DNA of 27,603 bases. It comes from Ktedonobacteraceae bacterium (GTDB taxonomy: Bacteria > Chloroflexota > Ktedonobacteria > Ktedonobacterales > Ktedonobacteraceae). Below, piece after piece: positions 1 to 24,234 of the stretch. The notes below the pieces were generated by a model. It was not told where the DNA came from and did no database searches. It saw only the letters and a list, made by a program, of their open reading frames with translations. Made by a program: the position numbers and the translations under genes. The stretch covers positions 1-27,603 of the forward strand of contig DASTKE010000154.1 in the NCBI GenBank assembly GCA_035716105.1, given 5' to 3'. The first letter of the stretch is position 1. Every line of letters starts with the position of its first letter.

Positions 1-299
1 ACAGGACAATACCACATACCTCTTGTGTTTGCAAGCATACATACAACCGCACACCTACTACGATACCCGCAACGAGAGCATTCTGTCAAGTTAAGTAATT
101 CAGGGATTAGCATATCGTTTGTGAAGGATAGGTTTTGAAGAGCAGCCTGCAAGGCTGCTCTTCAAAACCTATCCTTCACAAACGATATGCTAATCCCTGA
201 ATTACTTAACTTGACAGAATGCTCTCGTTGCGGGTATCGTAGTAGGTGTGCGGTTGCATGTATGCTTGCAAACACAAGAGGTATGTGGTATTGTCCTGT
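1..299. repeat. Long near-perfect inverted repeat (palindrome): arms 1-148 and 152-299, loop GCA (149-151); may extend beyond the window start
   Basis: Checked base by base: position i pairs with 300-i for 147 of 148 positions; the only mismatch is A43/C257. Confidence 0.98.
211..240 (+). promoter_or_regulatory. Candidate sigma70-type promoter TTGACA-N18-TATCGT, mirrored on the minus strand at 89-60
   Basis: Consensus -35 at 211-216 and a TA---T -10 at 235-240, upstream of the 322..558 ORF. Motif match only. Confidence 0.4.
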
Positions 300-321
300 T
301 CCTGATAAAGAGGTGAATTTC

Positions 322-558
322 GTGTCCAACCTGTTACAGTTTCTTGCTAACGAAGATAAATTGACGGACGAGCTTTTCGCGTTCGTCACCGACCCTAGCG
401 CCGATAACCGCAACGAACGCGCTATTATCAGCGTCCTGCACGAGGTCCTGCCCCAGATGGTTTCGGTCGCCGAATGCATGATCCTGGATGGGGTCGAGGA
501 GCGGCACTATGTCGCTGATTATGTCCATGCTGCCCTCAATGGCGCGAGCTTCGATTAG
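322..558 (+). CDS. Small acidic hypothetical protein (78 aa from GTG322; longest ORF 187..558, 123 aa)
   Basis: Open frame. A strong SD (GAGGTGA, 310-316) lies 5 nt before GTG322. The start at 187 lies inside the palindrome arm. No family recognised. Confidence 0.5.
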   Translation: MSNLLQFLANEDKLTDELFAFVTDPSADNRNERAIISVLHEVLPQMVSVAECMILDGVEERHYVADYVHAALNGASFD

Positions 559-685
559 GCGTCTCCAGCTTTCCTGAACCAGCGTGATACAACCCGTTGC
601 AGGATACGTATCATATATATGTGTGCCTGTAATAGTGCATTGGTACTGGTGAATCTGTTTCGCTGGTGGGAGGAGCGGGCAGTAT

Positions 686-1102
686 ATGACCATGACATTT
701 AAACGACGCCTGTACCGGCTCAGTCTGGTGAGCGCCACTTTATTGCTGCTTGGAGCGCTGGCATATGCTTTGGCGGATGTGGGCATTTATTCGCTGCAAC
801 TCTTCTGGTTCTGCTATCTGTTCACGTTTGCTGGCATCGTTTCTTGCATGAAGACGATGGAGACGTGGAGTTCCTGGCTAGAGGATACCAGCGAAGACTC
901 TGACGAGACGACCCTGCGGAGCAACATTTATCCCCTCGCTTTCAACCTGGAAGCGTTTGCTATTCTCCTGGTAGCCGCGTTTCTCTTTGTCTGGACGGTA
1001 GGAAGATCGCCAACGTCCCAGGAAGGACTGATCTTTATCTGGTGTATTATCGTCGCCATTGGTTGCGCATTGACCGGGCGTCTCGCCGCAGGCCTCGAAT
1101 GA
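686..1102 (+). CDS. Hypothetical membrane protein, about 4 TM segments (138 aa)
   Basis: GGAGGAG SD upstream of ATG686; four hydrophobic stretches with an acidic loop (EDTSEDSDE) between the second and third. Confidence 0.75.
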   Translation: MTMTFKRRLYRLSLVSATLLLLGALAYALADVGIYSLQLFWFCYLFTFAGIVSCMKTMETWSSWLEDTSEDSDETTLRSNIYPLAFNLEAFAILLVAAFLFVWTVGRSPTSQEGLIFIWCIIVAIGCALTGRLAAGLE

Positions 1103-1111
1103 GGCTTTATT

Positions 1112-1194
1112 TCTGGCCGACTAGTGTTTACAAAGAGGTGTAGAACAGCCTGCAAGGCTGTTCTGCACCTCTTTGTAAACACTAGTCGGCCAGA
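1112..1194. repeat. 40-bp-arm hairpin with GCA loop between convergent genes; possible bidirectional terminator or REP-like element
   Basis: 1112-1151 pairs with 1155-1194 at 39 of 40 positions (T1141/G1165). Core CAGCCTGCAAGGCTG is identical to 143-157. Confidence 0.95.
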
Positions 1195-1196
1195 TA

Positions 1197-2774
1197 TTAC
1201 CCGTGATGCCATTGGACGGTAAAGGTGCTGCCTGCCTGATCGAGCGATGATGCTGTCGCTTTTGCAATGCCTGTATCTGTCTGCATCTGGTAGAGAATGT
1301 CCTGCGGGCCGCTCGCGATGGGTTTGTTCTGGTTGAGCAGGCAGGAGATGCTCTCCGTGCCAAAGTCGGTCAACTGCGCGAGATGGCCCGTGTTGCTGGC
1401 GGGATTATCAACGATGGTTGGCGCTTCGACGATGCATTCTGCCACACTGGTATCAAAAGCGTTTCCCGCGTGGGTGGTTGAGAAATGATCGCCTTCCCTG
1501 GGCGCGTCTATACTGAGAGAGAAGGTACTGTGCTGAAAGGATACCGCAGCCGTCACGCTGTCACCCGGCTGAAGAGGCAAGTCAAGCGGCACGGCAGGGT
1601 CTGGAAATGTCTCCCACCAGAGATAGTACTGCGGGTCTCCCGCCTGGCAATCGCTATCCGATCCCAGTTGTGCCAGCAAGCTTTTGTCGGTGGCATCGCT
1701 GGTCATGCCCACCCAGGTGGCTGAAAGCGAGGTTTCTCCGGCGGAACAGTGCGCCTGTGGCACCGTCCACTGTCCCGTGACTTTCTGAAAGGCGACCGGC
1801 TGTCGCTGGTCAAGAGCCATAGCGGCGTATCCGGCGTAGTAGGTATTGGGCTGTGGCAGGATATAGCGAATGGTTCCACTGCGGGTGCCATCGGGATTCA
1901 CGCCCGTTGCCAGCACACTTCCGTCTCCCGTGTTCCCATTGATCGTAAAGCCCAGCGTGAACGGCCCATTGTGAAGGTAGGTGCCGTGTAGTGTGAGGTC
2001 CCAGTGGCAAGTATAAAGATCATTCCCGCTGCTCACGGCGCGACAGATAGGTACTGGTGCCTGTCCTGCAATAGCTGCGGTGAACTCCACGTCTGTGATG
2101 CTGGCATGTTGCGCAAAGACGTAGGCGGATAACTGTAAGCCTGCTCCCTGCACCAGAAAGCCCTCTTCCGGCGAGTTCCACAATCCAGCCATTGTCTTAG
2201 CCGGAACGATGAGGACAGTAATATGGAAGGCACCAGTATTATTGGCAACGTTGGAGGCGTTCACTCCCAGGAACAGGTTCCCTGCTGTTGTCGGATTGAA
2301 GCCAACGTGCGCCCCCACCCCTCCAACCTGTCCGGCGATACCAACACTATAAATGACCGAATAACAGGGAAAATCAGGATATGGCAGGGCAGCAGCATTG
2401 CACGTGAGGGTGCCTGCCGGGCCTGATTGTTTCCCACCTGGCAGAATGCCAGCAGAGCCGGAGGCGAAAATTTCGATCTTTTCGCCCGGCAGCACGGGAA
2501 TACCGGTATCGGCTCCACGTTTGCCAACCGAGAAATCACCGGCAATGTCTCTCAAGCGTTGTTGTGCGGAGAGCAGAAATGTGTAGATGAGTGGATGGGC
2601 TGGAGGCGTCCGACCGATAGCAGAAGCGGTGTCTGAAGGTAGCCCGGCGCAGCCTGATAACAGGATGAGCAAGGCGAGCGACAGGTAGAGCAATTTTCTG
2701 CGGCAGGGTCTGGCACGGTAGCTCGCCTCTCTTTGTGCTTCATGTATTCGCGCTTCATCGCTGTTAGGGGCCAT
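1197..2774 (-). CDS. Lipoprotein with LecA/PA-IL-like lectin domain, Ig-like middle region and C-terminal G1 (eqolisin, Peptidase_A4) glutamic peptidase domain
   Basis: Signal peptide with lipobox LLILLSGC. N-domain DTGIPVLPGEKIEIFASG...GNLFLGVN...NNTGAFHITV. C-domain YAGY, VTGQWTVP, SATWVG, AQLG (catalytic Gln position) and AECIVEAP (catalytic Glu position). Start uncertain: the ORF runs to 2849. Confidence 0.75.
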   Translation of the reverse strand: MAPNSDEARIHEAQREASYRARPCRRKLLYLSLALLILLSGCAGLPSDTASAIGRTPPAHPLIYTFLLSAQQRLRDIAGDFSVGKRGADTGIPVLPGEKIEIFASGSAGILPGGKQSGPAGTLTCNAAALPYPDFPCYSVIYSVGIAGQVGGVGAHVGFNPTTAGNLFLGVNASNVANNTGAFHITVLIVPAKTMAGLWNSPEEGFLVQGAGLQLSAYVFAQHASITDVEFTAAIAGQAPVPICRAVSSGNDLYTCHWDLTLHGTYLHNGPFTLGFTINGNTGDGSVLATGVNPDGTRSGTIRYILPQPNTYYAGYAAMALDQRQPVAFQKVTGQWTVPQAHCSAGETSLSATWVGMTSDATDKSLLAQLGSDSDCQAGDPQYYLWWETFPDPAVPLDLPLQPGDSVTAAVSFQHSTFSLSIDAPREGDHFSTTHAGNAFDTSVAECIVEAPTIVDNPASNTGHLAQLTDFGTESISCLLNQNKPIASGPQDILYQMQTDTGIAKATASSLDQAGSTFTVQWHHG

Positions 2775-2886
2775 TGGTTGAATCCATTCCAGTACTTCAG
2801 GGGTGTAACCAGACGTGCCTATCATATCGTATCTTACATATGCTCGCAAGCGTTTTGGCGGCGATTCGCTACATGTTCCTGCTATA

Positions 2887-5249: not shown

Positions 5250-6500
5250 CTATTCCACCGCTATCTCTGCATCGCTCGCGACCTGGTAGCGCTCTTCCTC
5301 TTGTTCTCTCTTCCCAGAGAGCGTTTCCAGTAACTGCTGGTAGCGTTGCGCCATTGTTTCCCAGCGATACGGAATATAATCCTCGGAGGCGTTGGCGATC
5401 AGGGATGCACGCTTCTCCGGGCGCTGGTAGAGGTCGATAATGGCCCCGGCGAATGCTTCGTGCTCTAAGGGAGAACAGAGCATGATAGATTCTGGACGGA
5501 ACAGCGAGCGGATGGCCGGCGTATCCGAGGCGATGATGGGACGGTGCATCCAGGCGAACTCGTAGGCTTTCGTGGGCAGCACCAGGTCCATGAAACCATC
5601 GCGGCGATACGGGATGATGCCAACATCGCCATGTACCACGAAATCAACGATCTCGTCGGAGCGGCATGGCTCCGTGAATATCACCGCGTCGCTTATGCCC
5701 AGTTCCGCGGCCAATTGTTTGAGTACGGGCAGATGCTCGCCTCTGCCTTTAATATCCAATCGCACGTTCGGTATGCTCTCGCGTACCAGGGCAATGGCGC
5801 GTATGGCGATATCGAGGCCGTTGCGTTCCGCCAGCGTACCATGATACATCACAATGAACGGGTGGGGTTCCTCGGATGACTCAAATGGGAGGGGATAGCG
5901 GCGCGAGGGCGGGAAGAGTTTGGGATCTGCGCTGTTGAGAATAATGGTCATCTTCTTAGCAGGGATACCGCGCTGCAACAGGACTTTTTCAAAAGGCCAG
6001 CCAACCGTTATCACGGAATCGGCAAACGCGGAGGAGAGGCGCTCCTGCCAGATCGCCAGCAGGGTCACGATATTCTTCTTCGCCCCACTCGACTTTGCCG
6101 CCATCAATTCCGGGCTGGTATCCTGTATCTCTAGAATGACTTTTGCCCCCAGCAGCTTTGGCACCAGAGCCGCGAAGACGAGAAAGTCCGGCATATTGTG
6201 GACGTGGATGACATCGTAACGTCGCTTGAGGTGCAGCCGGGTGATGGTCATCGCCGCCAGGAGGAGGAACCAGCACCAGCTCAGGATGGTCATGGGCAGT
6301 GAGCGGCCAAAGCCTCGATCCATTGGCAGGCGATAGACATGCACGCCGTTGCAGACTTCATGGCGCTTCTCGTCCGCCCGGCGCAAGCAAATCACATCGA
6401 CGCTATTCCCGGCGGCGACCGCCGCGTCAGCGACGCGGCGTACCAGGGGATCAAAAGGGAACCAGTCAAAGGTAATTGTGCCAACTCGTATTGACGACAT
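5250..6500 (-). CDS. Glycosyltransferase family 4 (GT-B), 416 aa
   Basis: SD AAAGGA before ATG6500; HVHNMPD, YHGTLAERNG and PTKAYEFAWMHRPIIASD motifs. The track's extension to 6701 overlaps the upstream gene and is probably non-coding. Confidence 0.9.
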   Translation of the reverse strand: MSSIRVGTITFDWFPFDPLVRRVADAAVAAGNSVDVICLRRADEKRHEVCNGVHVYRLPMDRGFGRSLPMTILSWCWFLLLAAMTITRLHLKRRYDVIHVHNMPDFLVFAALVPKLLGAKVILEIQDTSPELMAAKSSGAKKNIVTLLAIWQERLSSAFADSVITVGWPFEKVLLQRGIPAKKMTIILNSADPKLFPPSRRYPLPFESSEEPHPFIVMYHGTLAERNGLDIAIRAIALVRESIPNVRLDIKGRGEHLPVLKQLAAELGISDAVIFTEPCRSDEIVDFVVHGDVGIIPYRRDGFMDLVLPTKAYEFAWMHRPIIASDTPAIRSLFRPESIMLCSPLEHEAFAGAIIDLYQRPEKRASLIANASEDYIPYRWETMAQRYQQLLETLSGKREQEEERYQVASDAEIAVE

Positions 6501-6525
6501 AACGATAACATCCTTTCGTATCATT

Positions 6526-7785
6526 TCAGGCACTGCGGCTTGTACGTACCCATTCACTTGTATGTTTTTTGCTTCTCCTGAGCACGAAGTATACCCAGAG
6601 TTTCCAGAGCATAAAGCCCGGAGCGTGCAGGAGCGCCCGGTACACGGCTTGAGGCGGCTGCAACAGGTACAGGGGAGTAGCGATGTACCCCAGCAATCCA
6701 CCGATCAGCAGCAGGCTGAGCAGGAGTTCAATCGTTGCAAGAAGTGCGAACGGCGACCAGAGGAAGCCTATGAGCGCAGCCAGCAGCATGAGCAAGCAAC
6801 CGCATACCAGCGAAGAAAGCGGCGGCGTCAGCAATTCGGCTGTCGCCTCGATACGTGCGGGATCGCGAAAGCGAATGCCCGCCCGCAGCAATCTCGCGGC
6901 GATGCGCCATGTTGATTGAGAACCGTCTCCGGTTGGTGATTCCCAGCGTACATCTTGCGTGCGCATCTGAGAAAATGTGGTCGGCATCTGCGAGCGTACC
7001 ACCGCTTCAGGGACATAGCATACCCGCTCACCATGTTCTATCAGGATGAGGTAATACTGGTAGTCCTCTCCAATTGTGAATGCTTGCCAGGGATAGCGCT
7101 GGAGAAGATCGTGGCTCAAACACATGCCGTTGCCGGTGAGCGTAGAGGAGGCACCGAGGCCATTTCTACCGAGGGTGCGCACGTGGTTGACCAGCGAGAG
7201 GGCAATCCAGCGCAGGGCCGCGCTGGGAGATTCTGTAATATTGAGTACCGTGTTATTTGCCTGCAATGCCCGTGCGCCTTGCGAGAATGCTCTTGCCATC
7301 GCCTGTAAAAAGGTTGGTACTACCACTGAGTCGGCATCGAGCACAATGTAGGCATCGTGGATACGCCGGTCTTCAGCTAGCTTCTGTAAGAGCCAGTTCA
7401 GCGCGTAGCCCTTGCCACGCTTGCTGCTATCAAAGCGCTCGTAGACCTGTACGCCCCCCGTATCTCCCATCGCACGAGCCAGCGCGGCTGTGTCATCCGT
7501 GCAATTGTCGGCTACCACGTAGACCATGAAGTGTCCCTTTGGATATGCAAGCTCTTTCAGGCTGCTCAATAAGCTCGCCAGTATCATTGCCTCGTTGTGG
7601 GCCGGAATCAGTATGGCGAAGTTGGGCAACTGCGCTGGCGCAACATCTGTGTGAGTGTGCTTACTTCTCCTGCTTCTCGTGGTCAGAATTGCGGAGATGC
7701 TCAGGAGACACAAATACAGGATCGGGAGGGCTATGCTTATTTCCACAAACAGAAGTAGCCATCTGATGATCTGCGCTGCTAGCAT
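6526..7785 (-). CDS. Glycosyltransferase family 2, membrane-bound, synthase-like (IcaA/BcsA-type motifs)
   Basis: IPAHNE, ADNCTD, KGYALN, LDADS (DxD), GED and QDVRW (QxxRW); N- and C-terminal TM segments. Confidence 0.92.
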   Translation of the reverse strand: MLAAQIIRWLLLFVEISIALPILYLCLLSISAILTTRSRRSKHTHTDVAPAQLPNFAILIPAHNEAMILASLLSSLKELAYPKGHFMVYVVADNCTDDTAALARAMGDTGGVQVYERFDSSKRGKGYALNWLLQKLAEDRRIHDAYIVLDADSVVVPTFLQAMARAFSQGARALQANNTVLNITESPSAALRWIALSLVNHVRTLGRNGLGASSTLTGNGMCLSHDLLQRYPWQAFTIGEDYQYYLILIEHGERVCYVPEAVVRSQMPTTFSQMRTQDVRWESPTGDGSQSTWRIAARLLRAGIRFRDPARIEATAELLTPPLSSLVCGCLLMLLAALIGFLWSPFALLATIELLLSLLLIGGLLGYIATPLYLLQPPQAVYRALLHAPGFMLWKLWVYFVLRRSKKHTSEWVRTSRSA

Positions 7786-24002: not shown

Positions 24003-24160
24003 GCAGCAATGTCGTCCCTTAGCCGACCTCGACCTGGCGTGCATAATAGGCTCTTTTGAGAAGTATACAGGCAAGATGTTCTCATGAGATGTTCAAGAGG
24101 GCAAAAATAAGGTGTTAGCAAGTATTCAATGTGGAAATATGTTCACTATCCATATAGAGA

Positions 24161-24195
24161 GGGGGAAGTGACACAGAGGGTGTGTCACTTCCCCT
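24161..24195. terminator. 14-bp perfect stem-loop downstream of the response regulator; probable terminator
   Basis: GGGGAAGTGACACA (24162-24175) pairs with TGTGTCACTTCCCC (24181-24194); 5-nt loop. Confidence 0.6.
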
Positions 24196-24234
24196 TCTTT
24201 CATAAAAAGAAGTTCCGGGTGGTTCGTGCTGGGA

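Follow-up and report, generated by a model that had tools for sequence, protein, structure and literature searches.

In this study, two hairpins with an identical apical core were analysed at the start of a stretch of 27,603 nucleotides (hereafter the window), which is contig C154 (DASTKE010000154.1, assembly GCA_035716105.1) of the metagenome-assembled genome (MAG) of a soil Ktedonobacteraceae bacterium and begins at contig base 1. Each of them belongs to a class of palindromes that are very long, almost perfect and placed immediately behind stop codons. The best joint explanation, which we consider likely, combines gene-end palindromes typical of the lineage, a small subfamily of them sharing an apex, copying between arms at the DNA level, and an assembler fold-back that lengthened the first hairpin in the deposited contig. 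The hairpins and the features belonging to them are as follows.

102-148 (no strand): left arm of hairpin 1, ~47 nt; a unitig branch at 169 puts the end of complementarity at 198/102.
152-198 (no strand): right arm of hairpin 1, seen from pairing and from an apex unitig of run X2 that covers 119-181.
143-157 (+ strand): shared core, copy 1, a 6-bp stem with a GCA loop, supported by shuffles and genome search.
1146-1160 (+ strand): shared core, copy 2, supported by shuffles and genome search.
1109-1197 (no strand): hairpin 2, arms 1109-1151 and 1155-1197 with a GCA loop, supported by pairing, folding and independent contigs.
1-101 (no strand): assembler fold-back, a mirror copy of 199-299 from the reads of another strain, not genomic at this place.
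110-204 (no strand): 95-bp stretch present or absent among strains, with the direct repeat ATTA at 106-109 and 201-204.

In the genome under study (G000, 4.67 Mb in 893 contigs), 276 hairpins have arms of 22 nt or more, and the 244 that are internal to contigs have arms of 22-53 nt (median 35) with 3.3% mismatches. Almost all of these are unique in sequence, with only 13 BLAST pairs among them; in hairpins 1 and 2, only the apical 20-34 nt resemble other hairpins and the basal stems are unique. A stop codon faces inward within -20 to +40 nt of the base in 191 of the 244 (78%), mostly at 0-10 nt, as against 5% of random places, and hairpins occupy 12% of convergent spacers (76/636), 5% of tandem spacers (95/1963) and 2% of divergent spacers (11/646). 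Hairpins 1 and 2 both show the traits of the class, namely a near-perfect stem of ~24-50 bp, a base at an inward-facing stop (for hairpin 1, an inferred one) and a near-unique sequence. Hairpin density is ~52/Mb in G000, ~40/Mb and ~30/Mb in two congeneric sister species, G001 and G002, and 0-25/Mb in small samples of other genera and families; G001 is assembled in 7 contigs, and the class is real in other assemblies as well. The ends of orthologous genes in G000 and G001 carry unrelated hairpins or none, and the rpoB-rpoC spacer holds, across the family, unrelated hairpins, GTAGGGGCGACC-type repetitive extragenic palindromic (REP) repeats, or nothing; in G000, this spacer (C71:10746-10810, L032:1833-1897) is filled by a hairpin with 31-nt arms. 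Arms often extend into coding sequence, and convergent gene pairs then share their last codons, as in the C-termini ARTT* (C418:2999-3086), SESE* (C683:486-565) and Y* (C689:5174-5245), each encoded by two arms, and the G001 orthologue of the right-hand C418 gene ends ...LAHESKVVS* and not ...LARTT*. No description of these hairpins was found in the literature on Ktedonobacter palindromes, inverted repeats and intergenic repeats.

Evidence from other strains came from k=31 contigs and unitigs of independent DNA runs, and 14 DNA runs from 7 studies contain at least 83% of the sampled words from window 150-1400. Hairpin 2 is real, as it is also seen in contigs of independent runs from three other studies; contigs of independent runs end at 1141 and 1166, and short unitigs cover 1112-1195. 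Its 43-nt arms are 95% complementary (counted as 43-45 bp with 2-3 mismatches, a T-G mismatch at 1141/1165 among them), and it folds at -78.7 kcal/mol on the + strand and -76.0 kcal/mol on the - strand (z ~ -16). It occupies the spacer between two convergent stops, that of gene 2 (1100-1102) and that of a peptidase A4 gene (1197-1199), its base lying 6 nt past the former while its other end overlaps the latter. Rfam gave sub-threshold matches to miRNA-precursor models only, which are generic long-hairpin matches. The shared core, the 15-mer CAGCCTGCAAGGCTG, occurs on the + strand at 143-157 and 1146-1160, where 0 occurrences are expected from 100 shuffles, and neither a third copy nor a reverse-complement form was found anywhere in the 893-contig assembly. 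A preliminary description of this DNA, made from its letters, had reported these identical GCA-capped cores, and they are indeed the sole two copies in the assembly; the compensatory pair swap that it saw between the surrounding 23-mers can equally be read in the sequence, AGAG-core-CTCT and AGAA-core-TTCT differing by a two-sided change, and the 29-mers around the two cores are 86% identical. Two smaller hairpins were also observed in the window: a terminator-like one at 1090-1107 (AGGCCTC/GAGGCTT, then TATTTCT) over the stop of gene 2 and upstream of hairpin 2, of a kind found twice where 1.3 are expected by chance, and a third, shorter hairpin at 24158-24198 with 18-nt arms and a 5-nt loop.

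As assembled, hairpin 1 has arms at 1-148 and 152-299 with one mismatch, and a 299-bp near-perfect palindrome opens the contig. Hairpin 1 is real, but its true arms are ~47 nt long (102-148/152-198) and mismatch-free around a GCA loop, and the 148-nt arm is an assembler fold-back at the contig start. The sole mismatch of the assembled form sets 43A against 257C, while six k=31 contigs of other runs (L114, L115, L119-L122) carry 257T, and the first 96-148 nt of these six, as far as each reaches, are 100% identical to the reverse complement of the corresponding part of window 1-148; the left half, with the 257T haplotype in reverse, therefore mirrors the right flank of a different strain. A branch in the unitigs at 169, observed in two runs (X1 and X7) and two contigs (L115 and L118), makes 198 the last self-complementary base at k=31, and in one X1 contig the stretch 201-255 is preceded by unrelated sequence that ends in ...CCCAGTAGGG. 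The supposed right arm contains the gene 1 promoter (211-240), which is conserved in the sister species and whose mirror image at 89-60 also scores as a promoter, on the opposite strand, just as an artefact predicts. In G000, 32 contig ends fold back in this way, their arms measuring 22-186 nt with 64 and 69 as recurring lengths (e.g. C214:1-290, C842:2361-2641 and C736:1-373), and all 12 hairpins with arms longer than 53 nt touch a contig end, while the 244 internal hairpins reach 53 nt at most. These contig-end fold-backs are an assembly artefact seeded by real hairpins, and they are likely one reason for the fragmentation into 893 contigs. The preliminary description had contrasted arms of at least 148 bp with arms of 40 bp, a difference that the haplotype, the branch at 169 and the contig-end pattern reduce to assembly. 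The 299-bp palindrome at the contig start would agree with a genuinely giant hairpin 1 or with a linear replicon that ends in a covalently closed hairpin, and some k=31 contigs do reach 152 without a branch; however, the single-nucleotide polymorphism of another strain in the left half, the branching in several runs and the fold-backs at the other contig ends make such a structure extremely improbable. Moreover, a hairpin telomere has no continuation past its apex, whereas a contig from another sample runs leftward from 201 into a gene of 302 aa.

That contig, a 1860-nt ENA contig, carries the partial 302-aa gene on the + strand, ending at window-equivalent 198 and only 84 nt from gene 1, followed by identical gene 1 and gene 2, and stops at 1147, within hairpin 2. 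A hairpin-less haplotype (haplotype B) is recorded in run X1 (record 2) with the junction ...CAGT-AGGGATTA-CTTAAC, in which AGGGATTA, found at 102-109 of the hairpin-bearing form, also makes up the last bases of the upstream gene region. For the hairpin-bearing haplotype, we infer the left flank ...CAGT-AGGGATTAGCAT..., whose predicted upstream T at 101 would mismatch G199, exactly the position of the unitig branch. Going by this predicted sequence, the upstream gene would most likely end with TAG at 101-103, inside the stem base of hairpin 1; the outermost 8 nt of the right arm (TAATCCCT, 191-198) are the mirror of that gene's 3' end, part of the stop codon included. The 95-bp difference fits either loss of the palindrome by slipped-strand deletion at the short repeats or an insertion that duplicated 4 bp. 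At exactly the place of hairpin 1, a less closely related strain (L116, 97% identical) has the end of another kind of repeat, which is headed by GTAG and resembles a REPIN (a hairpin formed by paired REP sequences). Neither the loose-end sequence of haplotype B nor any 18-mer of window 1-330 is found on another contig of the assembly, and metagenome scans with the 23-mer apex pattern and with the haplotype B junction gave no match. Wherever contigs could be compared (3 DNA runs, 9 Logan contigs), the interval between the hairpins is collinear and hairpin 1 is the variable piece; presence or absence of 150-1153 among strains, which the preliminary description had envisaged, was thus not seen within the species.

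The common core of hairpins 1 and 2 is explained by their membership of a subfamily with about ten copies, whose apical module is close to TGTAGAAyrGCC-TGCAA-GGCyrTTCTACA. Its members are hairpins 1 and 2, those of C67, the end of C370, C3, C255/C31, C615, C519 and C201, and one each in G002 and in G069, a genome of a different genus. A search with the strict apex pattern, an exact degenerate pattern, found 3 loci in G000, one each in G002 and G069, and none in the other 109 family genomes searched. Members are 75-90% identical at the apex only, with unrelated basal stems, and two-sided changes between them fall at 15 of 18 aligned pairs, which is partly explained by the palindromic nature of each copy. 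The C67 hairpin is homologous to hairpin 1 over 34 arm positions, 26 of them identical (a score of 33, where 3000 random arm pairs reached 27 at most), while the outer 13 nt of the two differ. The apex is not conserved genome-wide, inner and outer arm segments being equally dissimilar across 203 hairpins; therefore the shared apex marks a small family and not a general rule. By our own estimate, two members would lie 1 kb apart by chance with a probability of 0.02-0.07, which is mildly unlikely.

The most likely function of these hairpins, judged purely by position, would be that of a transcript 3'-end structure, either a two-way terminator or a barrier to 3' exonucleases. Hairpin 2 would close the two convergent transcription units of gene 2 and the peptidase A4 gene, and hairpin 1, sitting just before the promoter of gene 1, would close the upstream + strand gene that is missing from the contig. 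Proximity of a few nucleotides to stops, enrichment in convergent spacers, rarity in divergent ones and equal folding on both strands are all reminiscent of bidirectional intrinsic terminators. As to origin, the apex subfamily probably descends from a dispersed palindromic element, and copying at the DNA level, for which intramolecular template switching (quasi-palindrome correction) is the candidate, would keep the arms complementary and extend them outward into the local flank until halted by coding or promoter selection or by palindrome instability. Such extension would explain a shared apex with locus-specific basal stems. It is documented that inverted repeats can be perfected and extended by template switching (PMC8794818, PMC5941160, PMC13100816), and quasi-palindrome correction would account for perfect arms, paired changes and outward growth, stop codons included; it is, however, known as a mutational process on short repeats, whereas here it would putatively have acted at hundreds of loci with 30-50-bp arms in one lineage. 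Whole hairpins are gained and lost fast, hairpin 1 being absent from one strain haplotype through the 95-bp indel between ATTA repeats. Stem mismatches read on the sense strand comprise 47 G-T and 53 A-C, with no G-U bias, and this parity fits a DNA-level process, though weakly, and argues weakly against purely RNA-level selection. The earlier idea that symmetry is generated around the apex by fold-back or arm-to-arm copying is plausible as a putative process, in view of the shared apex, the two-sided changes and the unrelated bases.

Several observations speak against this explanation. A T-rich tract (at least 5 T in the next 8 nt) follows only ~6% of the hairpins, unlike canonical intrinsic terminators, no T run stands directly after either hairpin when the window sequence is read, and stems of 25-50 bp with no G-U preference differ from the ~5-14 bp of bidirectional intrinsic terminators. 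The mismatch symmetry test is weak, one mismatch barely affecting a 40-bp stem, and alignments of G000 spacers with those of G001 and G002 (C782, C67) were too diverged to show an ancestral arm. For the hairpin-bearing haplotype, the sequence to the left of hairpin 1 was deduced from the branch point and the 8-nt match to haplotype B rather than from a direct read, and the 95-bp event is compatible with both directions, deletion or insertion.

The genes of the interval and its right-hand neighbour are the following.

211-240 (+ strand): promoter of gene 1, TTGACA, 18 nt, TATCGT, with 10 of 12 consensus matches.
322-558 (+ strand): gene 1, 78 aa, GTG start after AAGAGGTG, genus-conserved.
686-1102 (+ strand): gene 2, 138 aa with four hydrophobic stretches, species-specific.
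1197-2849 (- strand): peptidase A4 gene, 550 aa, Pfam PF01828 (E 7.8e-21), convergent on gene 2.

Neither gene 1 nor gene 2 matched a Pfam or NCBIfam family, and the ESM Atlas gave no function, with leads only for gene 1. Gene 2 probably encodes a membrane protein, which has no match among 40 relatives and is encoded in identical form by 14 contigs of other samples. Position 928 is T in the window and A in every other run or contig examined, a synonymous difference (ATT/ATA) in gene 2 that reflects either variation among strains or an error in the MAG consensus. Orthologues of the peptidase A4 gene in G017 and G012 (~50% identity) have no hairpin downstream. Gene 1 has orthologues in G001 and G002 with 84-85% DNA identity and nearly the same protein, preceded by the conserved promoter elements CTTGACAG...GGTATCGTA, and these loci have different neighbours, with no gene 2, no core and no long hairpin.

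The loci in G001 and G002 bear directly on the cassette proposal of the preliminary description, in which the cores would be recombination sites at the borders of two genes that move together, as in an integron (attC) cassette or an IS200/IS605 element. Two similar hairpins 1003 bp apart that enclose two small genes, one of them species-specific, are what such a cassette would look like; nevertheless, we regard it as very improbable, and it is already largely refuted. Gene 1 and its promoter are kept in both relatives without the cores or gene 2, and relatives that keep the interval without the cores, which the preliminary description had itself named as evidence to the contrary, do exist to this large extent. 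Furthermore, both genes stay where they are in the strain without hairpin 1, hairpin 2 directly adjoins the stops of two convergent genes, and family searches revealed no transposase or integrase family in the interval or the window. An attC site is an imperfect, bulged hairpin with RYYYAAC/GTTRRRY at its base, present once per cassette with the genes in the same orientation, whereas the stems here are perfect, without bulged bases, and a complementary core-site pair is found at the locus only in the artefactual mirror half. Members of IS200/IS605 carry tnpA (Y1) and/or tnpB between their terminal hairpins, whereas the two open reading frames (ORFs) here have no family match and no Y1_Tnp was found in the window.

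Descent of the apical module from a degenerate REP, with the hairpins moved in trans by a REP-associated tyrosine transposase (RAYT, a Y1 enzyme) recognising GTAG and a short apical stem, is unlikely, while it has more to recommend it. GTAG followed by a 7-bp GC-rich stem is present in 5 of the ~10 subfamily members (hairpin 2 and four others), and a genuine GTAG-headed REPIN-like family exists in the genus (GTAGG..CGATTTATCG.. inverted pairs with arms up to 49 nt and a loop of ~11 nt), with copies in G000 at C370:2538-2643, C690:3489-3586 and C305:9552-9651 and ~30 matching places at 77-87% identity in G001, 20 of which were read (L167-L186). The repeat found at the hairpin 1 site of one strain is of this type, Y1_Tnp-like ORFs are present in G000, G001 and G002, the sole one of G000 being weak (165 aa, 25.8 bits, contig C290), and the hairpin-less haplotype resembles REPIN excision (PMC3116915). 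REPINs, like the elements studied here, are ~100-bp extragenic hairpins with two-sided changes that keep pairing and with loss of the whole element in some molecules or strains. However, it is the ends of REPINs that are conserved and the middle that varies (Bertels and Rainey 2011, PMC3116915), the reverse of an apex that is conserved on a variable base, and the ~10 copies of the subfamily are 15-25% diverged, with no cloud of near-identical sequences. Hairpin 1 has GAAG instead of GTAG, other members GGAG or GTAA, and GTAG is not enriched at apexes (~10 counted by eye against ~12 expected, a rough estimate). The Y1 nuclease that the preliminary description expected to be linked did not appear, since none lies in the window and the module flanks no Y1 gene examined: the C290 ORF has no hairpin repeats beside it, and no Y1 gene of G001, G002 or G069 has the apical module or the GTAG-headed repeat closer than 1.5 kb. 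On C290, a TIR-domain protein gene was observed beside the only Y1_Tnp-like ORF of the genome (C290:5038-5907 and 6366-6863). Alternatively, the apex could be the palindromic binding site of a dimeric regulator or an RNA-binding protein, kept by selection and not by descent, as might be suggested by its recurrence on the tips of otherwise unrelated hairpins and once each in G002 and G069. We think this quite improbable, as paired changes at many positions of the module preserve pairing and not sequence, the homology between hairpin 1 and the C67 hairpin reaches 34 nt into the arm, beyond what a protein site needs, and no common theme is visible among the genes beside the members.

What is new here is the subfamily with a shared apex on unrelated bases, the 95-bp polymorphism within a species at ATTA borders, and the fold-back artefact itself. 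The last calls for caution, as such hairpins break short-read assemblies and yield mirror-image contig ends, which may pass for giant palindromes, telomeres or the borders of a cassette. A more speculative and rather doubtful variant is that the apical module is a REP-like seed that spreads to gene ends and is there grown into a perfect 30-50-bp palindrome by hyperactive fold-back or template switching of the local flank, along with its stop and last codons; if so, the element would encode the tip only and the host would supply the rest, a way for palindromes to arise that has no described counterpart among bacterial repeats, and the C-termini of neighbouring genes would be rewritten. The locus offers a within-species snapshot of the turnover of gene-end palindromes in Ktedonobacteraceae, and if their arms are kept perfect and extended by template switching, these genomes would be a natural system for palindrome growth, with a limit of ~50 bp to the arms and identical last codons in convergent genes.

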